64,000 bases of DNA from NCBI GenBank assembly GCA_038087875.1, contig CM075992.1, positions 4,900,001 through 4,964,000 of the forward strand, read 5' to 3'. Both the position numbers and the translations under genes were made by a program. How positions within the stretch are numbered: position 1 is the stretch's first letter; each line of letters starts with the position of its first letter. This stretch comes from Malacoraja senta (taxonomy: Eukaryota). The notes under the pieces were generated by a model. The model was not told the origin of the DNA. It was given only the letters and a program-made list of their open reading frames with translations, and searched no databases. Of the stretch, positions 5,886 through 60,719 are shown piece after piece.

Positions 5886-6085
5886 NNNNNNNNNNNNNNN
5901 NNNNNNNNNNNNNNNNNNNNNNNNNNNNNNNNNNNNNNNNNNNNNNNNNNNNNNNNNNNNNNNNNNNNNNNNNNNNNNNNNNNNNNNNNNNNNNNNNNNN
6001 NNNNNNNNNNNNNNNNNNNNNNNNNNNNNNNNNNNNNNNNNNNNNNNNNNNNNNNNNNNNNNNNNNNNNNNNNNNNNNNNNNNNN
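5886..6085. other. Assembly gap (200 N)
   Basis: Run of N. Confidence 1.
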
Positions 6086-12100: not shown

Positions 12101-13766
12101 GGCCTACTCCTGCACCTATTGTCTATTGTCTATTGATGTGGTAAATGTTACGAAAGATTATAGGAAATGTTAGGAAAGATTACATGGATAGGACAGGTTT
12201 GGAGGGATATGGGCCAGACGCAGGCAGGTGGAATTAATGTAGCTGGGACATGTTGGCCAGTGTGGGCAAGTTGGGCCGAAGGGCCTGTTTCCACGCGGTA
12301 TCACTCTATGACTCTATGAACTTATGGATGCATTGAAAGACAGGTCCTAACTCAAAACATTTGTCAATTTCCCTCCGGGGACACTGTCTGATCTTCTGAG
12401 ATCCTCCAGCAGTTTTTTTTTCACTCTTGTGTGCCTCAAAGATTAAGGACTGTGGACACAGGGTCAGGGTTCAGTAATAGGAGAACCTATAAACAAAAGC
12501 CTGTTCTGGGAAGGTGCATATGGATACAGCCAAATTGTGTTCAACATATATATATATTAACAGAACTGTACAGTACAGGAACACGCCCTTCGATCCACAA
12601 TGTCTGCTTAACATGATGCCAAGATAAACTTATCTGTCTGCACATGATGCATACCCCTCCCTTCCTTGCATGTGTCTATCTAAAAACCTCTTAAATGCCA
12701 CTATCATATCTGCCTCCACTACCGCCCCAGGCAACGTGTTCCAGGCCCCCACCACCCTCTGTTAAAAACCTTGCCCCACGCATCAAGTATATTCTGCTAA
12801 AACCTATAAGCATAAATTCCTAATAATGTTGAGGTAATGCCTGCCAATACTGACAACGGTAATAGATACAGCATAGCAATTCTTTCCAAGCTAAACATTC
12901 CTGACCTTCACAATGAAAAGATTAGTTTTTTCACTGTGCCACTTAGTACAATGTAAAACAACACACAAAAAAAACTGAAATAAATACACGTCAATCTTTT
13001 CCTTCAGATGATCTGTTTAACATTGACATGTTACATTTCGGTTTAATGTAACAGGGAACAGTCTGAAGAAGGGTTTCGACCCGAAACGTTGCCTATTTCC
13101 TTCGCTCCATAGATGCTGCCTCACCCGCTGAGTTGCGCCAGCACTTTTGTCTACCAGGGAACTGCGGATGCTGGTTTATACCATAGACACAAAATGCTGG
13201 AGTAACCCAGCGGTTCAGACAGCATCTCTGGAGAGAAGGAATGGGTGACGTTTCGGGTGGAGACCCTTCTTCACACTGATGATGATCCATTACAGACGAT
13301 AAATACCCCGTAGAACAAATCAATGAAAGGTATGCAAAAAGCACTCAGCAGGTCAGGCAGCATATCTGGAGAAAAGGGACGCTACCCTTCTTCGAATTTT
13401 GTTTTAATTGCCATTCATATGTATCTGAATTTTCAATGTGTAGGAAGGAACTGCAGATGCTGGTTTAAACCGAGAGACACAAAATGCAGGAGTAACTAAG
13501 CAGTTCAAAAAACATCTCTGAAGAGAAGCAATGGGTGACGTTTCGGGGTCAAGACCCTTCTTCAGACTCAATAACAATTGAATTTTCAATTATTTATTTC
13601 GGATCTTTTGATATATTTCCTTACAATTGGAAATTAATGCTGACATATGTTTCTGGTCTGATGTGGCAAAATGTGATGACGGTGTGAAGGCTGGTTGACA
13701 TTCGTTTCCTGCCCTACCTTGAGATTGTGTAAAAGCTTTAGACTTGTTTGGTAGTTACAGGGTGTG

Positions 13767-13920
13767 CCAATGCTGACGCCAAGCGGGTGACCGGGGCTTT
13801 CCGCGTCGTCGTGCGGAAACCAAGTCCATATATGGGCATATCGGAATGAGTGTGACGTCAGAGCGGCTGGCTTTCCGGGAACCCCCGCCTACGTGTTGAT
13901 CCAGAGCAGCTGGAGTTTCC
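13767..13920. promoter_or_regulatory. Immediate-early-type enhancer module (CRE, NF-kB, Ets, CArG, CRE, STAT/kB)
   Basis: CCAAT 13767; TGACGCCA 13774-81; GGGGCTTTCC 13793-802; CGGAAA 13814-19; CCATATATGG 13826-35; TGACGTCA 13853-60; TTCCGGGAA 13873-81 overlapping GGGAACCCCC 13877-86; TACGTG 13890-95. CpG-rich unique DNA. Confidence 0.75.
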
Positions 13921-15444
13921 AAACTGGCGTACAAAGCGCGTAGAGAAGGAATTTTAAAAAAACTCCAATTTGCAAATAGATCTATTTTTATAAAGCGACG
14001 CTTTCAAGAAAAGACGAAATTAGGCCCTAAAATAACATTTTGTTCAAAGGTCTGACTGCAAAAACATCCATCTTCCCAGCAGGACCTGATGAACGTTTCA
14101 CAGGCCAACACAGATAAATGGTTACAGCTCCCTTTGCCCTATGACTAACTCGCAACAGTTCTAACAGCTTGATGAACCTAGGGTTGCAATGAAAATCCAC
14201 GTTTAAAATATTGAATAGAGTATTAAACTTCATGGACACAGGATAGAACAACATTCAGGATAGAACAACATTGTCATCTGACAGGAATAAGGAATAATGT
14301 ACAAAAATAATGCAAGACCTCATTGTCCTTGTGAAATAGGCTTTCGGTATTTTAGTTTAGTTTCTTGTCACGTGTACCAAGGTACAGTGAAAAGCTTTAG
14401 TTGCGTGCTATCCAGTCAGCAGAAAGACGATATATGAATACAATCGAGCCATTACAGTGTATAGATACATGATAAGGGAATAATATTTAGGTTTTTTTAA
14501 ATTTCAAAATAGACTTTATTCAAGTAATAAATCTGAAGGGTGTGTTTTAATACTTATTTAATACTTAATATTTAAGTATTAAATAAGTATTAAATATTTA
14601 ATACTTTTGCCTTGGCAGTGAAATAGATACAGGAAGTACACAGAATTACACGGCTTGACATCTGTGAAGTTTTGGATGAAGCTTCAATATGCAGTTCCAG
14701 TTTTGACTGTATTTGATTCGACTATTTCTGTGTAGTTGCAGCTATGAGGCATGACATAATTTATGTTATGATGATGTCAGAGGAAAGTGACACAAATCAT
14801 GAGATGAGCTAATTTGGATAATTTTATTGTGTGTTTGTACACACGTATAATAAGTCCACCATTTTCTTCTGTAAAGGCAATGCCTTTTACAAAGCGGTTA
14901 CCAGTTCAGTGAATTGAAATGGAGTTTGTACTTTATGTAGTTCTTCATGTCTGTGACACTGATCAGTGTGTATATAGGTTAATTGACCTCTGTAAAATTG
15001 CCCATAGTGTGTTAGGGAAAGTGGGATAACATGGAAATAGTGTGAAGGGGTGATCTATGTTTGGTGGGGGCCAAAGGGCCTGTTTCCATTGAAGATAGAC
15101 ACAAAATGCTTGAGTAACTCAGCGGGTCAGGCAGCATCTCTAGAGAAAAGGAATAGGTGATGTTTCGGCGCAAGACAATTTCTTCAGACGTCACCTATTC
15201 CTTTTCTCCAGTGATGCTGCCTGACCCGCTGAGTTACTCCAGCATTTTGTGTCTATCTTCAGTGTAAACAAGTTGCAGTTCCTTCCTACATGGGCCTGTT
15301 TCCATGCTATATATCTAAAACCAAAGCTAACACTTTATACGCCCCATGTCTATTGTCAGACACCGATCATTTTCAATAAAGGGAGAGATGATTCCAAAGC
15401 TCTCTGCCTTTAGGCAGTTTCCATAAGGAGTAGCTGATATGTCG

Positions 15445-21700: not shown

Positions 21701-22920
21701 AAACAGGCCCTTCAGCCCAACTTGCCCACACCGGCCAACATGTCCCAGCTACACTAGTCCCACCTGCCAGCATTTGGTCCATATCCCTCCAAACCTGTCC
21801 TATCCATGTAATTTAGAGAGGATTTTTAAAGATGGGAGAATTAAATAAATAAATGATAAATTTATGATGGGGGGGGGGGATTAATTAATTAAATAAATGA
21901 TAGATTAATGATGGGAGAATTAATTAAATAAATAAATGGTAAATTAATGATGGGAGAATTAAATAAATAAAATCAATAAATAAAATATAGTCTGAAGGGT
22001 CTCGACCGGAAACGTCACCTATTATTCCTAATCTCCAGAGATGCCGCCTGTCCCGCTAAATTACTCCAGCATTTTGTGTACATTTTGAGAATATAACGAT
22101 TTGGGGAGAGGCGTGCTGATTTTTATTTTTTAAGTGACATTATACCCCCGAGCCTCTCTCCCACCCGCCAGCCCACCATCCGCCTTCCTTCAGAAGGCTT
22201 GGTGCGTTATTGCAAGGACCATAGGTCACATTGATCACAGGTACCTGTGCGGCATGATGACAGCCTGTACATCCCCTCCCCTCCTGCAGCCCTTTCCACC
22301 CACTGCGCCTTTTACCCAGGTTGGCGTTTACAGTGACGTCCGAGCCCGCTGCCAGCGCGTCTGAAGTGAAGGTTGCAGTGTTCGCATCCTTGCGTGCGTC
22401 AAAGTGACTGTGGGGGAGGTGTTTCAATGATTTAATCGATTCCATCTCACCCCCCCCTCTCCCCTCCCCTCCCCCGACACACAACCGCCAGAAGGACCTG
22501 TGACATCAACGAAAACACACAGTCGATTAACATCACTATCTTAATCCGTGCAATAAATTCACCATCGTGCAATATAGATACCCATCCTGTGTCTAACTAA
22601 CTCCCTTCACCATGTTAACCACTGTCTCTCTGCAAAGTCTGCCGCATCTAATTCACCACCCCCCCCCTCCCCCTCCCCCTCCCCCCTTTCAGATTTCCCT
22701 CAAGGTGGTAAAATTATATTAATAATAACATTCCTTGGATATCACAACCAAATCCTATTAAGCCCTATAGGATTATTCAATATCCCATTGAAGTTCAGGA
22801 ACAGCTTCTTCCCTACAGCCATCGGGCTATTAAACACTACAGCCTTCAATAAGCCCTGAAGTACAAAGACTTAGGGGGCATTGGTTTTGTGTTTATGCCC
22901 TATTATTGTTTGTTTATTTA

Positions 22921-31087: not shown

Positions 31088-31108
31088 TTCCGGTAAATGG
31101 TGACGTCA
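31088..31108. promoter_or_regulatory. STAT-CRE composite element
   Basis: TTCCGGTAA (31088-96), 4 nt spacer, then TGACGTCA (31101-08), inside about 400 bp of non-repetitive sequence. Confidence 0.45.
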
Positions 31109-32480
31109 AAAGATGGAGCAATCCAATAGCTTGGGGTAGAAGGTCATGTGGAGGTAAACTGCTGGAATCATAATCCAGATTGTGAATAATAAAGTGTAGG
31201 AAGGAACTGCAGATGCTGCTTTACACCGAAGATAGTCACAAAAAGCTGGAGTAACTCAGCGAGGCAGGCACCATCTCCAGAGAGAAGGAATGGGTAGTAT
31301 TTCGGGTCAAAGGGTCTCGACCCAAAACGTCACCCATTTCTTCTCTCCGGAGATGCTACTAGTGTGTGTAGGATAGTGTTAATATGCGGGGATCGTTGGC
31401 CGGTGACGACTCGGTGGGCCAAAGGTCTATCTCTAAACAAATACAAAATAAAGTAAACTGTATTATCATAGATGGCGTGTGAAAAAACATTAGATGTTCC
31501 TCTCACCCTGCCCACAAACTCTTTGAATCACTTCCCTCTGGAAGGCGACTCCGGATTGTCAAAGCTGCCACGGCCAGACATAAAAACTGTTTTTATCCAC
31601 GAGTAGTTGCTCTACTCAACAGCCAAAAATCTGTAGCCAACCTTTTTGGTATTTGGTATTTTGTTGGTTCACATGCTTGATCAATGGTGTTTTATCATTA
31701 ATGTTTTATTATTATTAATGTTTAGTGTTTTCAGAGTCATTCGTAACTGTCACTGTATGTCATGTTGTTACTTGTGGGCGGAGCACCAAGGCAAATTCCT
31801 TGTATGTGAATACTTGGCCAATAAACTTACTTACTTACTTCCTTATTTTCTAAGCAGATCTCTGAAGATTCCATGAACTGCAGATGCTGGAATCTTGAGC
31901 AAACCATCAAGTGCTGGAGGAACTCAGTGGATCGGGCAGCATCAGTAGAACAAATGGACCGATGACATTTTGAGGCGGGACTCTTCTAGACATTGCTTGA
32001 TCTAAAGAAGGATCTCAACCCGAAACAATGTTTGTCCATGCCATCCACAGATGCTGGCTGACCCTTGAGTTCTGCTAGCACTCTGTTTTGCTAAAGTGCA
32101 GATCTCCATCTGACCTCTCAACTCTTGGCTGGCCTTGTAGTGTGCAGAGAATTATTTTAAGGTTCATTGTGTTTGAATTGGTTGTGAGCCAGCAATGTTC
32201 CTGCAATAACCTAAAAAAGTATTTAGTACGGTGTTTACAAACCTGTTTGGCTGCTGCTGCTGCCAGCAAGAATTTGATTGCTCTGTTTTAGGACATATAA
32301 CAATAAAACACTTCTCTCTCTCTCTCTCTTAACTCTTGAAATATATTTTCCTTCATATTGCACAGCAGCAAACCCTGTGGCCTAATGCCTAGTTCAGTTT
32401 CAGTTTAGTTTATTGTCACGTATAGCGAGGTTCAGATGAAAGTTTTTGTTGCGTGCTAACCAGTCAGCAGAAAGACAAGA

Positions 32481-33303: not shown

Positions 33304-34634
33304 TAAAACATGATTACAATCGAACCATTTGCAGTGTATAGATCATGATAAGGGAATATCATTTAGTGCAAGGTAAAGCCAGCAAAGTCTCATCAAGGAT
33401 AGTCCGACGGTCACCAATGAGGTAGATAGCAGTTCAGCACTGCTCTCTGGTTGTGGTAGGATGGTTCAGTTGCCTGATAACAGCTGGGAAGAAACTGTTC
33501 CTGAATCTGGAGGTGTGTGTTTTCACACTTCTGTACCTTTTGCCTGATGGGAGAGGGGATAAGAGGGAATGACCAGGGTGCGACTCGTCCTTGATTATGC
33601 TGCTGGCCTTGCCGAGGCAGCGTGAGGTGTAGATGGATTCAATGGAAGGGAGGTTGGTTTGTGTGATGGTCTGGGCTGTGTCCACAATTTAATTTCTTGC
33701 GGTTTTGGATGGAGCCGTTCCCAAACCAAGCTGCGATACATGTGTGACTATGTGATATGATTATTATTATACTATTAGGATGACACAAAAGGAGGTCAAT
33801 GTGGCCTCTCAGGAGAGAAATACCATCAGCCTCATTCCCCCCTCTCTTTATTTCCTATAATCTAGAGATACATCATGCAAGAGGCCCTTCTGGCCACCGA
33901 GCCCATGCTGACCATCAATCACCCATTCACACTAGTTCTTTACACACTTGGGGCACTTTACAGAGGCCAGTTAACCTATAAACCTCTACATCTTTGGGAT
34001 GTGGGAGGAAACGGGAGAAAACAAAAAACATTGGAGCATTTTACTAGATTAAATGGGATAAATACTGGTGGAAATTCAGGATGTTTAGTGAATGCTGGCC
34101 TTGCTGGTATGTTAAAATGTCGGAACCCCCCCTTAAATTTAGTTAAATGTGCCAAAATGTATTCATGAGATATCAGCAGGCAGAGTAATTAGGCAAATAT
34201 ATTTGTTGCTCTCCAATCAAGGGCAAAGGAGTGAGTAGGAAGGAACTCCAGATGCTGGTTTATACCAAAGATAGACACAAACAGCTGGAGTAACTCAGCG
34301 GGACAGGCAGCATCTCTGGAGAGAAGGAATGGGTGACGTTCTGGGGATGGGCTCTCTCTAAGTGCAAAGGAGTGTTTTAATGATGGAGAGTGCTTACCGG
34401 CTTAAATTTTAAGCCAACTTCCCTCAAGAAATGTACATGGATGTGCAGGGAATAAGGGGGATGTAGATCACTTGCAGGCAGAGATTAGCTCAACATGGCA
34501 TCGTGTTCGGTATGGACATTGTGGGCCGTTTCCTTGCTGTACTGTTTAATGCTCCAATCTGCTCTTCTGGATGAGTATACAAGCCTCATTGCTCTGTTAT
34601 GAAGAGGCATCGGTGACTCCTCTCTGGTGCTGGG

Positions 34635-34733
34635 CCAATGTTCATCACGCAACCAACGTCACAGGGACAAACTTCACTTGCTCACTGATCTCAGTTTACA
34701 AAATGGCCGTTCTCTTTGAGTTGCTATGGCAAC
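34635..34733. promoter_or_regulatory. CCAAT / YY1 / RFX X-box cluster
   Basis: CCAAT 34635-39; CAAAATGGCCG 34699-34709; GTTGCTATGGCAAC 34720-33 (near-perfect palindromic X-box). Confidence 0.4.
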
Positions 34734-41070: not shown

Positions 41071-41156
41071 CTAGTTCTGTTTCTCAAAGTATTTCTTGCT
41101 GTCGTGTACATCAGGCTTGATGGTGTCACTACCGGGCTTCCAGCCTGCCGGGCAAA
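41071..41156 (-). CDS. PRDX1: PRDX1 last coding exon with resolving Cys173 ([28 protein letters not shown])
   Basis: 86 nt; acceptor TTCTCTCCCAG; TAG stop at 41073-41071; YF motif retained (Y194/F195). Confidence 0.96.
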
Positions 41157-44100
41157 CTGGGAGAGAATGTGGACATTAGGTTAATAACACTAGGAAAAGC
41201 GCTCACAATGAACTGCTCAGGCGAAGGGCAAGATCAAGACAGTAGCAGCCCCCAATTAACCGAAGGTTGAGATTTCGTCACCTTGACATCTCTGGCCTGT
41301 GTCTAACCACCCACCCATCCAAACAACCCTCACCTGTATCCACCCATCACTTCCCAGCCTTTGTCCTGGCCCCTTCCAGATTTCTTCCTCTCCCACCATC
41401 TGTGTGAAGAATCCTGACCCAAATTATCACCCATCCATGTTCTCCAGAGATGCTGCCTGATCTGCTGAGTTACTCCAGCACTTTGCATCACTCCTCCCAC
41501 CACCCCGTCTCCACAATAGCACATTGGCCAAGGTCCATATTTCCAGGAGCTCCTTTGGTCACAAGGTCTTGAGGAATAAGCGTAGAATTGGGCCATTCAG
41601 CTCATCAAGTCTACTCCGCCACTCAATCATGGCTGATTTATCTCTCCCTCCTAACCCCATTCTCCTGCCTTCTCCCCATAACCTCCGACATCAGCACTTT
41701 GGTGGTCATCTAGATCCAAGGAACTGTCGAGTCTTGGGAATCGCTGGACGCTTGGGATAATAAGTATTTATATGAACTTGGAGGCACAAGATCAATCTAA
41801 TCAGAGTGCCCAAATAGGCTGAAGTAGGTTCAAGGTACAATGCTGGCTCAGAAACTAGCTTGTGAACAGCATGTACTAGACAGGTAGGGTTGTCACTGAA
41901 GCAAAGAATAGCAAATATGGACAGTTCCCAGGTTACATCAAGGCCACTGTTCTTGACAACAGCAAGCAGATATTTCTGCAAGTCAGATGAGAATTTTCTG
42001 TAGTACTCATATTGTATTGTTCTACGGTAGACAATACGATTTTCCAGCCTCTGCAGTTCCTTCTTAAACATTGTATTGTACTACAATTCTTTGATTAAAG
42101 AAGCACCCTAATTTTTAGTTTAGATATACAGCGCAAAAACAAGCCCTTCAGCTCAGAGTCTGCATCGACCAGCCATCCCCGCACATTAACGCTATCCTAC
42201 ACACACTAGGGACAATTTACATTTATACCAAGCCAATTAACCTACAAACCTCGACGTCTTTGGAGTGTGGGAGGAAACTGAAGATCTCGGAGGAAATTCC
42301 TTGGTTATGAGGAGAATGTACAAACTCCCGTAGTCAGGATCGAACCTGGGTCTCTGGCGCTGTGAGACAGCAACTATACTGCTGCGCCACTGGCCACTAA
42401 TATTACCCATAAGTTAATGGAATATAAACTGCATCCAGCCATGAAAACCACAAAATTTTACTAGCTTGCTAAATGCATGGGAGGATTTCTGCAAAGTCAG
42501 ATTGCCACAAGTCAGGATATTAACGACCCTGTGAGCCACTGCACTAAAGCCACATTTGTAATCGCCCCACTGCGTTTCATTACCTTCTCCGTGTTTGTCC
42601 GTGAATTGGTAGGCTTGCACCAGCCTTAGGGTCTCGTCCACAGATCGACCTACTGGAAGGTCATTGATGGTGATCTGACGCAGGATTCCTTTCTCATCAA
42701 TAATGAAGAGACCTCTTCAATGCAAAAGAATCAAGAGTTAATCGTCCAGTGGATTCAGGGGATCAGAATACATTGTGGAATGAAAACACGTTGAAACATC
42801 TGGCTGAAGAAGGGTCTCCACCCGAAACGGAACTCATTCCTCATCTCCAAAGATGCTGCCTGTCCCACTGAGTTACTCCAGCTTTGTGTCCATCTTCAGT
42901 TTAAACCAGCATCTGTAGTTCCTTCCTACACAAGCCTGCCTTTAAGGGCCTGTCCCACTTACGCAACTTTATCGGCAACTGCTGGCACCTGTCACAGGTC
43001 AGCGAAAATTTTCAACATGTTGAAAATTCAGCGGCGACCAGAAAGACGCTACGACTCTTTGGGTGACTGAGCAGACGACTCACGACCATACAGGCAACAC
43101 CCTGGAGACATGTCGCGGGGTGAAGCCTCTATGGTCGTGAGTAGTCACCCGAAGAGTCGTACCTTATTCTGGCCGCCATTGGATTTTCAAACATGTTGAA
43201 AAATTTCAGCAGCCTGCAACGACCTATGACGGGTACCGGCAGTCGCCGAAAAAGTTGCGCAAGTGGGACAGGCCCTTTACTCTGGCTTTGGAACTGTGCA
43301 GTGTGGCACAGCGGTGGAGCTGCAGCCACAGAGCCAGCTTGTGGGTTCATTCTCGGCGGGTGTGGTTGCCATGTTCTCCTGTGCCCATGCCTCCTTTAGG
43401 TGCACAGCTTTCCTCATGTCAACGAGATTAGGCTGGCACAGCATGTTCCCAGCAAGCAGAGCCAAGCTCTCCAGTGAACGGGGCCCCTGCCGAGAGAGAG
43501 AGGGGGCAGAGAGAGCTGTGAGACAGCGAGGAGGGCCATCGATACGCACTGTCCACGGGCGCCCTGGGGGATTTCCGGGCACCGCAAGGGGTGGTTCCTT
43601 GACAAGGATTGTAATAGCAGTATAATAGCATATTTAGTTTTAAGTATATAAGAATAGTATAGAAGAATAGATGTTTGGATAATTGGGTGATTTTGTATTA
43701 TGGTGGCAGGTTTGTTGGATATTGTATATATTATTGCAATAATCGATTCAATTTATTTTTGTTATTTTTGTTTTAAAAAAGGGTCACCGAGAACAAAGGT
43801 GGGGGGGGGGGGGGGGGAGAGACTATGCGGTGGGGTGGATGGAAGGCAGGCAGCAGATTAGACTGTTCAGTGAACTTTTGTCACTTAGTAAGCGCCAAAA
43901 TGTGGTGCCTCTTGCGTACTGCCCAGGTGAGGTCTGCTGCATTATTCTACCAGGTTGTCTTCAAAACAATGCATTTCACTGTACCTAGGCACACAAAGCC
44001 TATAAGGTACCACTGGGTCATTAATTAGCCAGTAAATTGCATCTAGGTTTAATGATTGGCAGGATCTGGGGGAATAAAATCAATCTAATGCAAATGGATG

Positions 44101-47100
44101 GACTCAAAATGCTGGAGTAACTCAGCGGATCAGGCAGCATCTCTGGAGAAAAGGAATAGGGGGAGACACTTCTTCAGACAGCGACCCGAAACGTCACCTA
44201 TTCCTTTTCTCCAGAGATGATGCCTGACCCGCTGAGTTACTCCAGTATTTTGTGTCTATCTTTGGTGTAATCCAGCATCTCTGGAGAGAAGGAATGGGCA
44301 ACATTTTGGGTCGAGACCCTTCTTCAGACAGCGCCATTTTGTGGCTACCTTCAATTTAAAACAGCATCTGTAGTTCTTCCTTACACATCTGCAGTTCCTT
44401 CCTCCACATTATGCAAGTGGATAATTGGTTGGCACAGACTGTTCCCTCCCACATGCCAAACACATAGTGAAGGCCAACTGAATTTTCCTGGTATGGGAGT
44501 GATATAATCTGGGAGATTTGATGGGAAATACAGGATGTGTAGGTGTAGGAAAATTAGATTACTGCGAACTGACAAACTCAATGTGCTAAATGCCCAATGT
44601 CATACGCAAATATGAAGTATTAGTCATTTTGATCAACTGAAAGATACAGCATGGAAACAGACCTATCAGCCCACTGATCATTGAATACCTTTCCACACTA
44701 GTTCTGTGTTATTCAACTGTCTCATCCACTTCCTACACACTAGGGGCAATTTTACAGTCAATTAACCCACAAGCCCACATGTTCGTGGGATATGGGAAAA
44801 AATCGGAGCACTCGGAGGAAACCCACGCAGACACGGGGAGAACATGCAAACTCCACATAGGCAGCTCCCAAGGTCAGGCTCGAACCCATTTGCAGAGGCC
44901 AATTAACTTACAAACCTGCATGTCTTTGGGATGTGGGAGGAAACCCACATGGCAGAGCTGCCAAGTTTTGTCAGAGCATTTCAGTATTCTAGTACCTGAA
45001 AATCAGTATTTTGCTGAGGAAATCAGTATTTTTACGCTGCGCCATCTTGCTGAAAAAAATGTTCTTTTTTATGTGCGGTCATACTCATGTAAGAGTACAA
45101 GAATGCACAACATTGCTACCAATTGGCATGTCTTCTATGCACCTTACTTGACAGCACATTCATTGCCATCTCTTTGTATACTTCTGTTTGAACGGCTGCT
45201 CCCTGCTTTTAGCACCACATGATGATGTAGAAGCCATTTTGGAAGCCTCCCTCTCCCTCCTTCCTTTTTTTTTTCCCTCCCCGAACAGTCTGACCCATAG
45301 CGCTGTGGCCATAGCGCTAAGTGTAAAGCCCCCCCAAAGCGCTATGTGTAAAGGCAATAGCGCTCCAGCTGGTAGTGCTATAATTAGAACCCATAGCGCT
45401 GTACGTTTAAATTCCCACGAGTTAAATTGACAGCGTTGTTTAAACCTGAAGCGGGACAGGCAGATCAAAGTGTACAAAAATAATCCAGATCTTGAAATTT
45501 AAAATACTAATAGCTTTAATCTGCTATAATTTTTAGTGTTACAGTATGACTTTTTTATATCCTTGCATTTTTTAAGCAGCAAGATGAAACAGGAAGTCAG
45601 GCTGATTTAAAAAAAATCCGTATTTTACAAAGCAAATCCGTACATCCGTATTCTTATCGCATTTCCGTACAAAATACGGAAAATCCGTACTACTTGGCAG
45701 CTCTGACATGGTCACAGGAAGAATGCAGCAGGACCTTTATAAAGGCAGGATTAAAACTAGAATGTCTAGTACTGAGGCAGAGGCTCTAATAGTGCACCAC
45801 TAATCTAGTCCAGTGAAGGTGGCCAAACCTTCAGGCTCAGTTAATGACCAGGGATTGGTTCAAATTGTTGAATGTGTCCATGGTGAACTTTTTGTAACTT
45901 TGGCAGTGCCAGAAACAGGGCACACTTGTGTACTGCCCAGGTGAGGTCTGCTGTATGATTTTACCGGGTTGTATGCAATGCATGGATAGAGTGGATGCGG
46001 AGAGGATGTTTCCATTAGTGGGTGAGTGCAGCACCAGAGGTCTTAGCATCAGAATTAAAGGATGTTCCTTTAGGAAGGAGACAAGGAGGAGGGAACCAAG
46101 TGTAATATATCAAAATTTGCGGACGATACAAAAATGGGAGGAAAAGTAGGGGATGAGGAGGATAGGAAGAGTCTGCAAAAGGATATAGATAAGCTAGGTG
46201 AGTGGGCAACAACTTGCCAGATGAAATTTAATACTAATAAATGTGAAGTCATTCACTTTGGGAAAAAAAATGATAGGGCAAGTTATTTTCTAAATGAGGT
46301 GGAGCTGCGTTGCAATGCAACGCAAAGGGATCTAGGGGTAGTAGTACATGAATCACTAAAAGTTAGTATGCAGGTGCAGCAAGCAATCAGGAAGGCCAAT
46401 GGAGTTTTGGCCTTTATTGCTAGGGGGATTGAGTATAAAAACACGGAGGTCTTGCTGCAGCTGTACACAGTATTAGTGAGACCACATTTGGAATACTGTG
46501 TACAGTTCTGGGGTCCATTCTTAAGAAAGGATGTACTGGCCCTGGAGGCAGTGCAGCGAAGGTTTACAAGATTAATTCCTGCAATGAGGGGATTGACATA
46601 TGAGGAAAGGTTAAGTAGGCTGGAACTCTACTCTTTGGAGTTTAGAAGAATGAGAGGCGATCTCATTGAAACATATAAGATCGTGAGGGGCCTTGATCGG
46701 GTGGATGCACCGAGGATGTTCCCAATGATTGGGGAAACTAGAACTAGGGGACATAGTTGTAGAATAAGAGGGGGCTCTTTTAAAACTGAGATGAGGAAGA
46801 ACTTCTTCACCCAGAGGGTGGTTAATTTATGGAATTCACTGCCCCAGGGAGCAGTGGAAGCAGAAACATTAAATATATTTAAGTCTAAAATAGATGGTTT
46901 TTTAGCTGCCAAGGGGATAAGGGGCTACGGGGAGAGGGCAGGGATATGGACCTAGGTATGGTTAGTATAGTAAGACCTGAGTGATCTCCTGGACAAGTGT
47001 CGATCGCCTGGATTGGGGTCGGAGAGGAATTTCCCGGATTTTTTTCCCGAATTGGACCTGGGTTTTTATCCGGTTTTTTGCCTCCCCCAGGAGATCACGC

Positions 47101-50100
47101 GGTTCTTGGGGTGGAGAGGGGTGATAGCAATATAAAGGGGAGGGTAGTGTCTTGTGTCTACTGTTTGTGGGTAAGGGTGTCTGTTTAGTGTTCAGCCATG
47201 AGCGAATGGCGGTGCGGGCTCGATGGGCCTGGTGGTCTACTCTCGCACCTACTTTCTATGTTTCTATGTTTCTAGATGAGGGTGGTGAATCTAAGGAATG
47301 CATTGCCACAGAAGGCTGTGGAGGCCAAGTCAATAGATATTTTTTTTACTTCAGAGATAGATAGATTCTTGATTAATACAGGTGTCAGGAGTTATGGGGA
47401 GAAGGCAGGAGAATGGGGTTAGGAGGGAAAGATAGATCAGCCATGATTGAATGGCAGAGTAGACTTGATGGGCTGAATGGCCTAATTCTGCTCCTATCAC
47501 TTATGAATGCAAAGCATTTTACTGTACGTTGATAAATGTGGCAACAAAGTATCACAGAAGCATTGGGAAGGACCGGTATCTGACCCAAGCTTCGTTTACA
47601 CCGACCTGTACGAAATGCCTTCATCTTCCTTTAGAATGCCATAGTCTTTGGAGATGGAATGCGTCAGGTCGGCCACCAGTGGAACCTTCATGTGGCCAAT
47701 GCCACCCTGTTTCCGAGGTGTGTTGATCCTGAAAACACATGGAGACAAGAGCTTTGAAAACGCATGAATATCCAGGGTAGAGATGTGCAAACCCATGCAA
47801 AAACTCCATACAGGCAGCACCCATGGTTAGGATCGAACCTGGGTCTCTGGCGCTGTAAGGCAGCAACGTTACTGCTGCACCACCTTGCACCCCCCCTCCC
47901 CTTCAGGTTGTGTCCCTTCTTCAGCATGCAGCATAGGGTCCACTCTGACCTTCGAGTTCCCATTCTTGCATGATCCTATCCCAACTCAGTTTATTGCCTC
48001 TATATTCCCCATGAATTGCCACCTGCTGATTTTCTATCTCAATGCAACTGGGGACAATTTAAGGATCCATTAATCTACTAACCCAGGCAGAAACAGAAGC
48101 CCATGTGGTCACAGGAAGAATGTGCAAACTCCACTGACAGCAGAGGTCAGGATTGAACATGTGTAGCTGGAGCTATAGGGGGCAGCAGCTCTACAAGCCG
48201 CATCAACCAGTAGTATACCTGCTGCCAGAGAAATGCAATATTGTAGAGCATCTAGTTCAACAAATGAAAAAGCAACTCAAAGACCTTAGGCCTGGTTCTG
48301 TTTTGGAAGCATCTTATGAAGTTCAGCTTCCACGGGCCAGGAGCCTCTTTACCCATGAACACAATTGAAAGCCCGGGGTAGAATTGAAAGCTGGGCGGCA
48401 TGGTGGCACAGCGGTAGAGTTGCTGCCTTACAGCGCCTGAGACCCGGGTTCGATCTTAACCATGGGCGCTGCCTGTATGGAGTTCATACGTTCTCCTTGT
48501 GACTGCGCAAATTTTCTCTGGGTGCTCTGTGTTCCTCACATACTCCTAAGATGAACAGGTTCGTAGGTTCATCGACTTGGTATAATTGTAAATTGTCCCT
48601 AGTGTGTTAATGTGCGGGGATCGCTGGTCGTCACGGACCCGGTGGGCCGAAGGGCCTGTTTCTGCGCTGTGTCTCTAATCTAAATAAAATAAACACGTAG
48701 TGAATTGGTTTACCGATTTCCAGCCTTTCACCCAAACCATTGTGTTCAGTGTTTAACGAGTCAAAAGGTTAGCCCCAAGTTCAAGCGTACACTCAAACAC
48801 AGCATCAAAGCAGAGGAAGACTTACCAGGCTAAGTGACTGAAGTGAGAGTCTGTTGAGGCACCAATAACTTCACAGTTGATCTTGCGAAACTCATCCGCC
48901 CGGTCACTAAATGCGATGATCTCCGTCGGGCAGACGAAGGTGAAATCCAGTGGATAGAAGAAGATCACAACATACTTTCCTGGATTGCAGAAGAGAGAGA
49001 GAGAGTTAACATTACACACTATTTCTCAATCTGGCTTTGGGTATTGATTAGTGTGCAAACAAATCTGCAAGTTAAGTCCAATGCTGGAGAAACTCAGCGG
49101 GTGAGGCAGCAACTATGGAGCGAAGGAATAGGCGACATTTCGGGTCGAGACCCTTCTTCAGAATGTCCCAACCTCTGTTGACTTCTGAATGGAGTTAGCA
49201 CAAACCACATCTGCACAGGTGATAGAATCTGGGGGTGCGGGGGAGGGGGGAGGTGGAGTACCAGGGACATAAGGAACTGCAGAGGCTTGAGTTTAGTTTA
49301 GAGATAGTGTGGAAATAAGCCCTTCAGCCCACCAAGTCCATACCGACCATGATCACCCGTCACTTCCCTACCATTCCTTGACCTCACTATCTCCATCGCA
49401 GGTGATAGACTTCTTACCGACATCCATTACAAACCTACCAACTCCCATGGCTATCTGGACTACACTTCTTCCCACCCTGCTTCCTGTAAGGACTCCATCC
49501 CCCACTCCCAATTCCTCAGTTTACACCGCATCTGCTCCCAGGATGAGGCGTTCCACACCAGGGCATCCGAAATGTCCTCATTCTTCAGGGAACGGGGTTT
49601 CCCCTCCTCCACTATAGATGAGGCTCGCACCAGGGTCTCTGCCATACCCCGCAACACTGCTCTCTCCCCATCCCCCCACTCACAACAAGGGCAGAGTCCC
49701 CCTAGTCCTCACCTTTCACCCCACCAGCCATCACATACAACAAGTGATCCTCCGTCAGTTTCGCCACCTCCAACGTGACCCCACCACTCGCCACATCTTC
49801 CCATCTCCCCCCCATGTCTGCCTTCCGCAAAGACCGCTCCCTCCGTAACTCCCTTGTCAATTCTTCCCTTCCCTCCCGTACCACCCCCTCCCTGGGTATT
49901 TTCCCTTGCAACCGCAAGAGATGCAACACTTGTCCCTTCACCTCCCCCCTCAACTCCATTCAAGGACCTAAGCCGTCGTTCCAGGCGCGACAGAGGTTCA
50001 CCTGCATCTCCTCCAACCTCATCTATTGCATCTGCTTCTCTAGATGTCAGCTGATCTACATCGGTGAGACCAAGTGGAGGCTTGGCGATCGTTTCGCCGA

Positions 50101-53100
50101 ACACCTCCGCTCGGTCCGCATTAACCAACCTGACCTCCCGGTGGCTCAGCACTTCAACTCCCCCTCCCATTCCGTATCTGACCTCTCTGTCCTGGGTCTC
50201 CTCCATGGCCACAGCGAGCAACACCGGAAATTGGAGGAAATGCACCTCATATTCCGCTTGGGCAGTCTACATCCTGGGGGCTTGAACATTGAATTCTCCC
50301 AATTCTGCTAGCCCTTGCTGTCCCCTCCCCTTCATCAGCCCTCTGGTTGTCTCCTCCCCTCCCCCAGCCCTCGGGCTCCTCCTGCGCCTTTTTTCCTTTC
50401 TTCTCCCCACCCCCTAACAGTCTGAAGAAGGGTTTCGGCCCAAAACATTGCTATTTCCTTCGCTCCATAGATGCTGCTGCACCCGCTGAGTTTCTCCAGC
50501 TTTTTTGTGTACCTTCACCCATACACTAGTTCTATCTGAGGCACTAGGGACAATTTACGGAAGCCAATTAACCTACACACCTGCACATCTTTGGAATGTG
50601 GGGGAAAACCGAAGCACTCGGGGGGAACGTACAAACTATCCACGGATAATACCCATAGTCAGGTTCTCTTGCACTGTAAGGCAGCAACTCTACTGCTGTG
50701 CCATTGTGCTGTCCATTCTCGAGTGGGGATAAGTGTGGGTGCAACTCAGCAGCCCAGATTAGCATCGTTGTCCCTAACGGGTTGTCACTGAACTCAAAGA
50801 AAAAACATGTCATTGGACTTAGATGCACTGATACTTTCTATGTAAAATCCAAAGATCTTCACTGTACCTAGTGAGGACAATAAATATCATCATCATCACA
50901 ACCAGGCAGAATTGGAGGATAGATAGTCAATGCTTCAGGTCAAGACCCTTCTTCTGAAATGCATCACCTCACTCCAGGGAAAGTGGTCCCAGCTTACAAT
51001 CTCCTTGTAACACGAGCCCTCCGGTCTCAGTAATATACTTGTGAATCTTTTCCATGCCTCCTCTCATCACATCTGACTAGGACTGTGCACAATATTCCAG
51101 ACAATGTCATTATCTGTCTATTCCCTGCTATGATGTTGCCCGACCTGCCGAACCCCTCCAGCACTCTGTGAAGAGTAGAGGGGAGCGTGCAGAGAATGAA
51201 TGGTAGTGGAACTGTGTGCATGGCAGGCAGACTGGGTGGGCCAGCAAGCCTGCTTTGAATGGCACGCATGTGCCTACAAATAGGCTGACATCCTGCCACA
51301 ACTTCCTTTAAAATGGAGGATTCACTTCTCTTAAAAGATAAAAGCAAAACTATTCATAGTTGACTCACTGTCCTGCATGTTTCTCAATAGGCCGCTTAAA
51401 CAAAGTCAGCATGACTGTGCAGGGAAAATCAAGGCACATGAACTGATTTGAGGTTTTGAAGAGGATTTACAAAGCAGTAGATGACATCTCCTTAGAGGCT
51501 TTTAACACAGTCTCGCCAAGTAGACACAAAAGGGCTTGGTTTTGGTGGAAAGAGTATGGTCGCGGAGGTTGGTTTTTTCAGATCAGCAGCCTGTGGCCAG
51601 TGGGATCAGCATTGGGGCCACTGTTATTCCTATGTCATGTGGATGAGAATTTAGATGGCACAAAGAGCAAGTGTGCAGTTGACCAAAGTGGTGGCATGAT
51701 AGAGGCAGTGAAGAAGGTTGTCCAAGGTTACAACTGATCCAAATCAAAAGGGAAATTGGGCCAAGAATGGCGAAGAAAAAACCCAATGTTGGCAAGTGTG
51801 AAGTGATGCGTTTTGTAAACTTAATATCAGGGTGGGACATTTGCAAATAGCAGGGCCCAGGCAAGTGTTGCAGAATAAAGCTGTAGGGTCTTGTGCATAG
51901 GGGCTCCCTGAAAATGTGGACAAGGCAATGAAGGCATGGAGATGCTTGCCACCAAAGGGACAAGGCATGTGGTACAAGAGATGGGACATCGCTGTAATGC
52001 TGTACAAGACATTGCTGTGATCGCACCTGGAATATTGTGTACAGTTCTAGTCACAAGGCGTGGAAAAGATTCACAAGGATATTGCTGAGAGTGGAGGGCT
52101 CTAGTTACAAGGAGACAATATAGACTGGGACCATTTCCCCTGGAGCAGAGGATGGTCAGGACTGAACTTATAGAAAGTGTAATTATACTCCTTGTGATTT
52201 ATGCAAAATGGATTGCCGATCTTTTTCGCAGGGTCAGAGGCCAAAATAGGGGACATGGCTAAGGTCATAAGGAATAGGAGTAGAATTACGCCATTCAGCC
52301 CATCAAGTCTTCTCTGCTATTCAATCATGGCTGATCTATCTCTCCCTCCTAACCCCATTCCCCTGCCTTCTCCCCATAACCTGTGACACCCAAACTAATC
52401 AAGAATCTGTTAAGGTGAAAGTAGAAAGAGTTGAAGGGACCCAAGGAGCAGGTCTTTCCACCCCCAATCCCATCAGATAGTGGTGGGTACATGGACCACA
52501 CAGCAAATGGTAGAGTGGGTACAATTACAATGCATAAAGATATTTGGACAGGTACATGGACAGATATGAATGGTTTGGAGGGATAAAGGTCAAGCATGGG
52601 CAAATGGGACTAGCTCAGGGCGTTAGCTACAGATGAATTGGGCCAAATGCCCCACTTCCATGCTACAAAACCTGTACCTGTACCACCAGAACACATTGCA
52701 TCCCTAGGTGGGAAAGAGGACAGTACAGGACCAGCCCCTTTGGCCAGCAATGCCCATTGCAAACATGATGCTATGGTAAACTAATCTCCTCCGATCGCAC
52801 GCAATTCAAATCCCTCTATTCCTTGCATTTCCATGTGCCTATCCCAAAGCCTCTTAAATGCCACTCACACCTGCCTCCAGCACCTCTGGTAGTGGGTTCC
52901 AGTCATCCTTCACCCTCCAAAAAGAAACACCCCACATATCTTCATTAAACGTTTCCCCTCTCACCTTAAAACCACGCCTTCTAGTTTTTGAGATATCCAT
53001 ACAGTTGGGGGGGGGGGGGGGGGGGAGAAGGTTCTGACTGTTTACCGCATCTGTTCCTCCATTTACTACACCCCCATCACATCTCCCGACAGCCTCCAGT

Positions 53101-53373
53101 TTTCCAGATGGCATCAGGCAGCTTATTGAATTACATTTCTATTAATAGTTATGACTGGATTAAAGTCTGTGCTCATAGCACATCTAAGGCGAAACTGAAA
53201 CAGGGATCCAAACAATGGAATATTTGACTAGCAAGCTGCAAGGGGAAAGATTATTTAACTGCCTCACCTTTGTAACTGGACAGAGTTAAGTCCGCAAATT
53301 CTCCATTGGGCATCACGGCCTTGGCTGTGAAGTCGGGTGCAGGGTGGCCAATTTTCGCATTTCCAGCTGCCAT
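41071..53373 (-). CDS. PRDX1: Peroxiredoxin 1, typical 2-Cys Prx, 199 aa; join of 5 coding exons
   Basis: Manual splicing gives [199 protein letters not shown]. All introns are GT-AG and the coding exons total 600 nt. The VMP motif and 199-aa length favour PRDX1 over PRDX2. Confidence 0.95.
42584..42714 (-). CDS. PRDX1: PRDX1 coding exon 4 ([44 protein letters not shown])
   Basis: 131 nt; acceptor TTCTTTTGCATTGAAG, donor GTAATG. Confidence 0.96.
42945..43276. mobile_element. Harbinger-type MITE in a PRDX1 intron
   Basis: TIR AGGGCCTGTCCCACTT; TTA TSD at 42942-44 and 43277-79. Confidence 0.88.
43425..43780 (+). mobile_element. Tx1/L1-like 3' fragment
   Basis: Degenerate GC-rich ORF end followed by an AT-rich UTR and an A-tail. 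Confidence 0.4.
44953..45705. mobile_element. Non-autonomous hAT-like DNA transposon with a 6-bp TSD
   Basis: 14-bp TIR CAGAGCTGCCAAGT; ACATGG at 44947-52 and 45706-11; splits a SINE at AAACCCACATGGTCACAGG. Confidence 0.8.
46098..47272 (+). mobile_element. CR1-type LINE 3' fragment in a PRDX1 intron (antisense to the gene)
   Basis: [10 protein letters not shown] motif followed by the 273-aa ORF 46134..46955, 3' UTR and (TTTCTATG)n tail; nested in an older CR1 fragment. Confidence 0.92.
47606..47728 (-). CDS. PRDX1: PRDX1 coding exon 3 ([40 protein letters not shown])
   Basis: 123 nt; acceptor TGTTTTCAG, donor GTCGGT; phases compatible with the neighbouring exons. Confidence 0.96.
48393..48693 (+). 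mobile_element. tRNA-derived V-domain SINE (HE1-like), near full length
   Basis: A-box TGGCACAGCGG, B-box GGTTCGATC, V-core, CR1-like tail GGGCCGAAGGGCCTGTTTC and an A-rich end. Similar copies at about 64-368(-), 10960-11280(+), 21330-21630(-), 42115-42390(-), 58415-58670(-) and 59169-59483(+). Confidence 0.85.
48826..48979 (-). CDS. PRDX1: PRDX1 coding exon 2 with peroxidatic Cys52 ([14 protein letters not shown])
   Basis: 154 nt; acceptor ...CTCTTCTGCAATCCAG, donor GTAAG; Cys52 codon at 48932-48930; matches ORF 48822..49019. Confidence 0.97.
49370..50515 (+). mobile_element. Penelope-like retroelement 3' fragment (RT C-terminus, GIY-YIG endonuclease, terminal repeat with hammerhead-like motif), in a PRDX1 intron
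   Basis: ORF 49775..50311 has CNRKRCNTC...NLIYCI...[14 protein letters not shown]...VAQHFN (Penelope GIY-YIG). The upstream part is frameshifted. It ends in the CTGAAGAAGGG... terminal unit at 50420-50515. Confidence 0.9.
53268..53373 (-). CDS. PRDX1: PRDX1 first coding exon ([36 protein letters not shown])
   Basis: ATG at 53373-53371, 106 coding nt, donor GTGAG at 53267-53263. Probable acceptor CCTCTCCTTCAAG places the exon start at 53386 (13-nt UTR). Confidence 0.95.
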
Positions 53374-55198: not shown

Positions 55199-56333
55199 TA
55201 TACAGTATTAGCCAGCATCCACTGTTCTGTGTCTGAACAAGGGTCTCGACCAGAAACGTTACCTATTCCTTTTCTCCAGAGATGCTCTGACCTGTCGAGT
55301 CACTCCAGCTTTGTGTCTATCTTGTGTTTCTATATGCCTAGAACTCCGATTAGTTTTAATGTTACGAGAATGCAGTTCTACTGTAACCAGGTTATTTGTC
55401 AACAATAATTAAAAACAAGTTATTTCCCTTCTCAATTTGAAAAGAGTGCAAAACTATTAGGAGCTACAAATTAACTGGGAAAGACCCAAATTTCTTACAT
55501 GCATGAACTGAACTCATATTTTGACAGCACAGATTGAATAAGTGTTAAAACTTTGTAGAGCAAATCTCAACATAATACATGCGAAGGGAGGAACTGCAGA
55601 TGCTGGTTTGAACCGAAGATAGACACAAAAAGCTGGAGTAACTCAGCGGGTCAGGCAGCATCTCTATTAATGGAATAGATGATGTTTCGGCTCGACATGA
55701 TACACTGTAGCTCATGGGGTTATAAACAAAGGGAAAACGTGGGCCCAAAGCTGCTTTCATCTCATTTCCAAGGTATTTAATCTGCTACAATTTGGCAACA
55801 TGTAGTTAAATGTTGCAAGATGAATGGGGGAATTGAGACCTCACCGAGCCAGGACTGTTTCAACCAGTTAGATACACTTGATACACATAGAACGATTAAA
55901 GTTGTTGCAAAAATCTGTGGCCGAGAGAGCAGTGGGTGAATTCTTGAAGTCGAGTGGTTGATGTTGCAAGCAGACGCTCTACATCCGTCTGAAGAAGGGT
56001 TTCGGCCCGAAACGTTGCCTATTTCCTTCGCTCCATAGATGCTGCTGCACCCGCTGAGTTTCTCCAGCATTTTTGTGTACCTTCGCTCTACATTTGATCG
56101 GATTACCAGCAAGTCAATCTGCACCACACGTGAAACCCTTTGTCACGGCTCCACTTGAAAGAGAATACAATGCAGCAAAACAGCCAGGATGTTCAAGAAC
56201 ATTTAAAACCACGTATTACATACTTTGCAAATGTTAAATTAAACACATAGCTGTGCAAATTGACTTTTAAAAAAAAAATGTAGGCAAAAAAAACAACCCC
56301 AAAAAACCGGCTCAGCAGATCGAGGAGACAAAC

Positions 56334-56404
56334 CTTGCAGTGTAGGTCTTGCAGGGAGGCGAACACACGACAAATACTCCCTCTGCAACGCTCCGGCGGC
56401 CAAT
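56334..56404 (-). other. PRDX1: Probable non-coding first exon of PRDX1
   Basis: CpG-enriched unique sequence; Inr-like CATT about 32 nt downstream of TATAAG; donor CAAG|GTTTGT at 56333. Vertebrate PRDX1 has a non-coding exon 1. Boundaries are inferred. Confidence 0.6.
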
Positions 56405-56430
56405 GCCCGCTGCCTCGCCGTCTCCTCCTA

Positions 56431-56484
56431 CTTATAGTCAGAGCAAAGATCGCGAGAGACGCCTGGGTCCACAATGACTCTGCA
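56431..56484 (-). promoter_or_regulatory. PRDX1 core promoter: TATA-like box plus antioxidant response element
   Basis: TATAAG on the minus strand at 56436-56431; ATGACTCTGCA at 56474-56484 matches the ARE consensus RTGACnnnGCA. Confidence 0.65.
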
Positions 56485-56656
56485 GAAAGCGAGGTCCCTG
56501 CTCTTAAAGGTGTAGCTCGAGTGTTGATCTCAGCATGACTGTCAGCGCTCACCCCTCCCTATGTCCCAAAAGCCACAACTAACCGTGGCAGGTTTCGGGG
56601 AGCAGAGAACGCAGCAAAAGGTGGGGGGTTGGAGGAAAAGTTGGGAATGAGCCAGA

Positions 56657-60217: not shown

Positions 60218-60719
60218 ACACTATCCTACACACTAGGCACATTTTACAATTTTACCAAAGCCAATTAAACTATAAACCTGCGTGTCTTTGGAGTGTGAGA
60301 CGAAACCGGAGCACCCAGAGAAAATCTCCTGACCCGTTAAGTTCCTGAAACAGTTTTGTATTTTTGCACAAGATTCCAGCATCTGCAGTCTCTTGTGCCT
60401 CTAATTTCCTACAGTCCTTCTATGTGGACGTTTGCTGTTCTATGTTGTAGGCAAAAACATGTGAAGCTGTTATTCCAGTTAAACCAAACTCAGTCTCATA
60501 ACGAAGAATATTAGTGGATTCTTTGTTACAGAATAATCCCCTTGGGTGTGTTTGTGATGTTAGTTCTTTCATATCGCACAAGGAATGCTTCTTTGGAAGG
60601 TGCAAAAGTGTTCGCGGAAAAGGTATTAAAAAAGGATTTAGACATTAGGATGTTGTGATCTACATGATGGTATAAAGTGTTGCTGTCATTCACCTTGGCT
60701 TGCAGCCCATGACACTTTG

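Follow-up and report, generated by a model that had tools for sequence, protein, structure and literature searches.

A junB-enhancer-like cluster of signal-response motifs tail-ward of a PRDX1/2-type peroxiredoxin gene in the skate Malacoraja senta

Promoters of the c-fos / egr1 type are laid out with a SIE, a serum response element made of Ets and CArG sites, and a CRE. In the mammalian junB enhancer an SRE lies between two CREs, and in mouse a STAT site and a kB site overlap by five bases; the enhancer is also said to contain an APRF/NF-kB site. The peroxiredoxin gene that faces junb in mouse is one that we take to be Prdx2.

According to the available portions of two papers, the mouse junB downstream (E) enhancer extends from +2022 to +2237, an element of about 200 bp situated some 200 bp downstream of the poly(A) site, and is pre-looped to the paused promoter (PMC3799436, PMC2833204). 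As far as the accessible text of the sources goes, the enhancer has four kB sites (PMC3799436), the serum response of junB is mediated by the downstream CArG (PMC516031), and a CRE-like octamer, one base off the perfect form, lies within a mouse ChIP primer (PMC3799436 Table 1). Among the matches listed from the open-access literature, we found no description of a cartilaginous-fish junB enhancer and no printed motifs or coordinates of the mammalian element, and the available parts of PMC10507257, PMC3074129 and bioRxiv 10.64898/2026.08.04.742722 hold no enhancer sequence.

Here we analyze a stretch of 64,000 nucleotides of Malacoraja senta DNA (the window), in which a first-pass annotation had noticed a likeness to the junB 3' enhancer. 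This likeness is borne out in the motif content of the module and in its position tail-ward of a PRDX1/2-type gene. We class the module as like the junB enhancer and not as a proven member, because adjacency to junb, one of the defining features, was tested and was not found in the scanned part of the window. The reading that we favor, and which the sequence makes rather probable in our estimate, is that the module corresponds by orthology to the mammalian junB downstream (E) enhancer, and that its target would be a junb gene predicted within the assembly gap on its left or further out. In support of it stand the motifs themselves, how densely they are packed, the substitutions of one other species that spare them, and a location relative to the PRDX1/2-type gene that agrees with mouse.

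Motif content, density and conservation of the module

Every motif that the first-pass annotation had placed between 13774 and 13895 was confirmed when the window was re-scanned, and the second Ets core, the GC box, the third kB-like site and the TATAAAG box, all missing from its list, were added (Table 1). The CRE-like octamer at 13774 is present but did not prove to be conserved, since G13775 is replaced by T in both other species whose contigs cover the site (X6 and X19), and it probably lies outside the core, or ancestral, module.

Table 1. Positions of the module's sites and of the surrounding features in the window
Feature	Position	Strand	Remark
CRE-like octamer TGACGCCA	13774-13781	+	second base differs in two other species
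kB site GGGGCTTTCC	13793-13802	+	from motif scan
Ets core CGGAAA	13814-13819	+	just 5' of CArG; predicted ternary-complex-factor site
Perfect CArG box CCATATATGG	13826-13835	.	predicted SRF site
Second Ets core CGGAA	13842-13846	+	
Perfect palindromic CRE TGACGTCA	13853-13860	.	
STAT (GAS) site TTCCGGGAA at 13873 and kB site GGGAACCCCC at 13877	13873-13886	.	five-base overlap
GC box	13883-13889		STAT/kB overlap site runs into it
TACGTG (HIF/E-box-like)	13890-13895	+	weak alone: 12 copies in the window
Third kB-like site	13911-13920	+	matches the consensus at 9 of 10 bases
CCAAT (13965) and A/T-rich TATA-like box TATAAAG (13989)	13965-13995	+	
Repeat-free island around the module	13574-14341	.	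768 bases
Assembly gap	5886-6085	.	200 N, true size unknown; 7.7 kb left of the core
Typical 2-Cys peroxiredoxin gene, PRDX1/2 type	41071-53373	-	199 aa; 3' end points at the module
Peroxiredoxin coding exons (5)	53373-53268, 48979-48826, 47728-47606, 42714-42584, 41156-41071	-	

The module has one of just 2 perfect CREs, one of 3 CArG boxes and one of 4 strict GAS sites in the whole 64 kb. Five motif classes (kB, CArG, CRE, GAS and CGGAA) are brought together at 13793-13895; three or more of them occur in 11 of 3,193 tiles of 154 bp, and all 11 overlap the module. When the 154 bases of the module were subjected to dinucleotide shuffling (n = 20,000), 16 shuffles reached three classes and none reached four, compared to five observed, although these odds are somewhat overstated because the classes were picked post hoc, after the finding had been seen. 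The CpG o/e ratio is 1.37 at 13801-14000 vs. 0.45 window-wide. The stretch from 13574 to 14341 has no repeat partner within the window and no tandem array lies over the core, while the flanks of the module are 38-58% self-repeated inside the window; Rfam gave no match at gathering score in the 64 kb. The original descriptions of the segment as CpG-rich unique DNA with a motif density unlikely to arise by chance are thus upheld.

A chance cluster, or a sequence derived from a repeat, is therefore largely refuted as an origin of the module, and we regard it as highly improbable. The motif classes were chosen after the fact and many windows were scanned, both of which leave some room for chance, but the result of the shuffles, the uniqueness within the window, the single X6 contig of flat depth and the changes in X19 that spare the motifs all argue against it. 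The first-pass annotation had named a high-copy repeat as an argument against its proposal; the absence of a second copy in the window and the single X6 contig indicate that the segment is not a repeat.

Words from 13620-14100 were shared by 22 of 24 sequencing runs, from 13 studies, and 4 of the runs were compared (X6, X15, X19 and X20); X16-X18, X21 and X22 share few of the words and do not enter the comparison. Contigs of three other organisms (X6, X19 and X20) cover the core, so the module is present beyond its source species, a point on which the earlier proposal also depended. In X6, one contig of flat depth spans all 768 bases of the repeat-free island with 28 differing letters. The X19 contig covers 13761-14132, also with 28 differing letters, 26 of them listed, and that of X20 covers 13790-13926 with 7 substituted places, 4 of which are listed and lie without exception outside motif positions. 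X15 shares 0.19 of the words and yielded three short pieces only, at 13584-13664; its missing record of the core may be a filter hole and proves nothing.

None of the 54 motif positions is hit by the 9 substitutions of X19 at 13793-13895 (P 0.0008, or 0.009-0.011 when wider spans are taken, with 0.011 for the 154 bases of the original finding). The substitution rate of X19 as such is hardly lower in the core than in the right flank (6.6 vs. 7.8 per 100), and flank divergence cannot be read from X20, the contig of which ends 18 bases beyond the core. No run on record as RNA was among those listed; X19 and X20 are guessed, not known, to be RNA, and so they are silent on transcription of the module. 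Left of 13761, the X19 contig continues with 29 further GC-rich bases that are unlike the window and contain a CACCC-type box; a GC box is found in the mouse +2018 primer at the proximal end of the enhancer.

The neighboring peroxiredoxin gene and the search for jun

The last exon of the peroxiredoxin gene is 27.3 kb and its start codon 39 kb distant from the module. The encoded protein differs at 4 positions from the proteins of Amblyraja and Rhinoraja, which marks the animal as a skate, and in the tree it joins 11 cartilaginous-fish homologues in one starred clade; among the best 120 matches there was no second PRDX1/2-type group of cartilaginous fishes. NCBI names these proteins peroxiredoxin-2 in 6 species, peroxiredoxin-1 in 2 and “peroxiredoxin-1-like” in most others. 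The tree assigns the cartilaginous-fish clade to neither PRDX1 nor PRDX2, and in AU tests none of its placements was rejected, be it with PRDX1 (p 0.59), with PRDX2 (p 0.48) or outside both (p 0.58). Five columns tell 14 PRDX1 rows apart from 14 PRDX2 rows; at these the window protein is 3:2 for PRDX1, with every state also seen in outgroups, and Cys-83, found in most PRDX1 rows, is absent. The protein keeps the N-terminal extra residue of PRDX1, but amphioxus carries the same insertion, which is therefore ancestral. Judged from these sequences, a single PRDX1/2-type group with ancestral states may indicate that one ohnologue was lost. The peroxiredoxin records of relatives are mostly on sequences of 12-45 Mb, with exceptions of about 90-376 Mb; the smaller sizes fit a microchromosome location and decide nothing.

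The first-pass annotation had labeled this gene PRDX1 and, on that basis, had read the module as a possible paralogous copy from an ancestral jun-Prx block. The label is unsupported in view of the one cartilaginous clade, the peroxiredoxin-2 names in 6 species, the missing Cys-83 and AU tests that reject neither placement, and the paralogy that rested on it is consequently unsupported as well. In its full form this model proposes a copy from whole-genome duplication that lies beside PRDX1 and serves jun or another jun paralogue. The tree does allow the placement with PRDX1 (AU p 0.59), two species carry peroxiredoxin-1 names and many others “peroxiredoxin-1-like”, and the N-terminal residue of PRDX1 is retained. 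However, that residue is ancestral, since it is also found in amphioxus, Cys-83 of PRDX1 is absent, peroxiredoxin-2 is the name given in 6 species, and the window shows no motif of AKR1A1 or MMACHC, which we take to be the neighbors of PRDX1. We therefore consider a paralogous origin distinctly unlikely; orthology is the simpler reading.

The earlier statement that no jun/bZIP ORF is visible in the preceding 13.7 kb agrees with our searches. Of the 529 stop-to-stop frames of at least 50 aa, 273 lie mostly in repeats; Jun/bZIP families had no match in the other 256, which were scanned, and Jun peptide motifs gave no credible match in the six frames of the window. As the frame scan recovered 2 of the peroxiredoxin exons, short coding pieces can escape it. 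Besides the peroxiredoxin, no synteny anchor was found in the window: motifs of RNASEH2A, AKR1A1 and MMACHC produced chance matches only. At human 19p13 the neighbors of PRDX2 are HOOK2, RNASEH2A, MAST1 and NFIX. The nearest possible hiding place for junb is the assembly gap, followed by the window edge beyond it. A junb-like gene is named in T cells of the bamboo shark in the available portion of one paper (PMC11372145).

Elsewhere in the window, unique DNA at 31088-31127 combines an Ets core, the only other perfect CRE of the window, a YY1-like site and a CCAAT box, and by its motifs it could be another enhancer or promoter, lying between the module and the peroxiredoxin. Unique DNA at 34633-34733 contains a CCAAT box, a YY1-like site and a perfect palindromic RFX X-box, and the CpG-island-like stretch at 22201-22550, which is not repeated elsewhere in the window and gave no Pfam match, is a candidate conserved element. 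A further unique, CpG-island-like stretch is located at 56276-56600, 3 kb upstream of the start codon of the peroxiredoxin, and is likely the promoter or a non-coding first exon of this gene. A candidate exon at 60515-60652, a short frame with a hydrophobic stretch and a splice-acceptor-like site before it, had no Atlas match and was rejected.

Comparison with mouse primers and the origin of the module

The mouse +4704 antisense primer (PMC3799436 Table 1) encodes GSDTIKP and matches the last peroxiredoxin exon of the window at 19 of 21 bases (minus strand, 41133). In mouse, the last exon of the peroxiredoxin faces junb 2.6 kb past the CRE-like site of the enhancer, compared to 27.3 kb in the skate window. 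The module and the peroxiredoxin are thus laid out as in mouse, and synteny therefore predicts junb on the plus strand, left of the module.

Four primers of the mouse enhancer (taken from Table 1 and from Supplementary Table 1) were each tried in both orientations, and only the +2237 kB antisense primer was significant. With a tile p of 0.014 it shares 13 identical bases with 13793-13805, but in the orientation opposite to that of synteny; ten of the 13 make up the kB site, and X19 and X20 have another letter at the 13th. Primer matches to the window in the orientation of synteny have p values of 0.39-0.67. A chain of three primers gives p 0.003 when inverted vs. 0.084 when direct, a result driven by the single kB site. 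In the context of the CRE, the letters of X19 at 13850-13851 make 11 of 12 bases equal to the mouse primer in the orientation of synteny; this comparison was made by reading, and the direct-sense scores of the window itself are not significant. A location of junb to the right of the module, taken from the kB primer alone, was dropped after the layout of the mouse primers in PMC3799436 Table 1 had been considered. Several results count against the orthologue reading, among them the lack of a jun frame in the scanned part of the window: the spacing between junb and the enhancer would have grown at least 38-fold, compared to about 10-fold on the peroxiredoxin side, and the only significant primer match has the orientation opposite to synteny.

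Could the module descend from the junB enhancer and yet have lost its junb? In such a scenario junb was lost or moved, and the orphaned element was kept to drive the peroxiredoxin or another neighbor on cytokine or growth-factor signals. No jun frame was detected in the scanned part of the window while the motifs are still constrained, the departure of the X19 contig from the window left of 13761 would be in line with a rearrangement on the side of junb, and the inverted primer match would fit a local inversion. On the other hand, the gap and the window edge leave space for junb, the start codon of the peroxiredoxin is 39 kb off, and the divergent end of X19 amounts to 29 bases in one contig. 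We consider it unlikely that the module outlived its link to junb in skates and was kept, perhaps inverted, making the peroxiredoxin an antioxidant gene inducible by cytokines and growth factors.

Searches in other collections yielded no vertebrate homologue of the module, be it from metagenomes, prokaryotes, plasmids or viruses. The pattern of the module returned 0 and then 7 matches in metagenomes and 3 in prokaryote genomes, with no CArG or Jun motif nearby in any of the 10, and no match in the plasmid collection. One of the 10, of low CpG, lies by our reading inside a DnaJ-like gene on an intron-rich eukaryotic contig. In viral contigs the mouse junb primer had 0 matches, while the combination of CArG and CRE occurred in 2 copies, both in one contig of 174 kb. 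The terminal repeats of this contig (L012 751-1093, equal to L011) contain several CArG boxes, a perfect CRE and a kB site. The repeat with CArG and CRE has no BLAST similarity to the module, and motif content alone is therefore no proof of descent.

The viral contig illustrates that pairs of CArG and CRE arise independently, and the skate module might likewise be an immediate-early-type promoter or enhancer assembled from common motifs, possibly firing rightwards from 13989 into a non-coding transcript. The CCAAT and TATA-like boxes fall within a run of 42 bases (13963-14004) that is free of listed X19 substitutions, the region is CpG-rich, and no mouse primer has a significant colinear match in the orientation of synteny. 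However, the position relative to the last peroxiredoxin exon is that of the mouse enhancer, the motif classes are those of the mouse enhancer down to the STAT/kB overlap, and no coding family follows downstream. An independent origin therefore seems quite unlikely to us.

Proposed mode of action and relation to known systems

If the module is the orthologue of the junB enhancer, as we favor, the specificities of the factors suggest how it would integrate signals. SRF bound to the CArG box would, jointly with an Elk/SAP factor on the Ets core next to it, receive ERK and Rho input, CREB/ATF on the CRE would respond to cAMP and calcium, STAT3 on the GAS site to cytokines of the IL-6/IL-11 type, and NF-kB on two or three kB sites to TLR and TNF signals. 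By analogy with mouse, it would form a loop with a junb promoter at which polymerase II is paused, and stimulation would release the polymerase. Insertion of transposons may have stretched the locus to 27.3 kb vs. 2.6 kb to the peroxiredoxin exon and, on the side of junb, to at least 7.7 kb vs. about 0.2 kb in mouse.

Orthology would mean that a single enhancer through which an AP-1 gene receives ERK/Rho, cAMP, IL-6-family and NF-kB signals dates to the last common ancestor of jawed vertebrates. Among the matches listed, the literature on deep conservation, in its available portions, deals with developmental enhancers and not with stimulus-response ones. If orthologous, the locus in skate would also put the short-loop model derived from mouse to a natural test, the distance to the gene being at least 7.7 kb as opposed to 0.2 kb. 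A locus that has lost its junb would instead offer a clear example of an enhancer taken over by a bystander gene. Surprise is limited by the fact that the mammalian enhancer has long been known.

In common with the non-coding enhancers conserved from sharks to mammals, such as those of Dlx URE2, Pax6 and Gli2 in the accessible parts of their descriptions, the module is short and constrained in cartilaginous fishes. It differs from them in that its motifs are of the stimulus-response and not of the developmental kind, and in that its conservation to mammals is inferred and not aligned. With promoters of the c-fos / egr1 type it shares a stretch of about 100 bp that holds an Ets core beside a CArG box, a CRE and a STAT site, followed by a TATA-like box at a distance of about 100 bp. 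Unlike these promoters, it has kB sites and a STAT/kB overlap, and no coding sequence follows.

The closest system is the mouse junB enhancer E. At base level the two were compared by way of primers, the matches of which conflict in orientation and do not establish the colinear motif order by which the first-pass annotation had proposed to test its reading. Mouse junB has its enhancer about 200 bp from the poly(A) site, whereas the skate module has no jun within 7.7 kb; it has two consensus kB sites and one near-match compared to four kB sites in mouse, and its CRE is perfect where that of the mouse enhancer is a one-base variant. Both are compact clusters in which several kB sites are combined with a CArG box, a CRE-type octamer and a STAT/kB site, both lie tail-ward of a peroxiredoxin gene with the last exon pointing at the element, and the two share one 13-base identity at a kB site.
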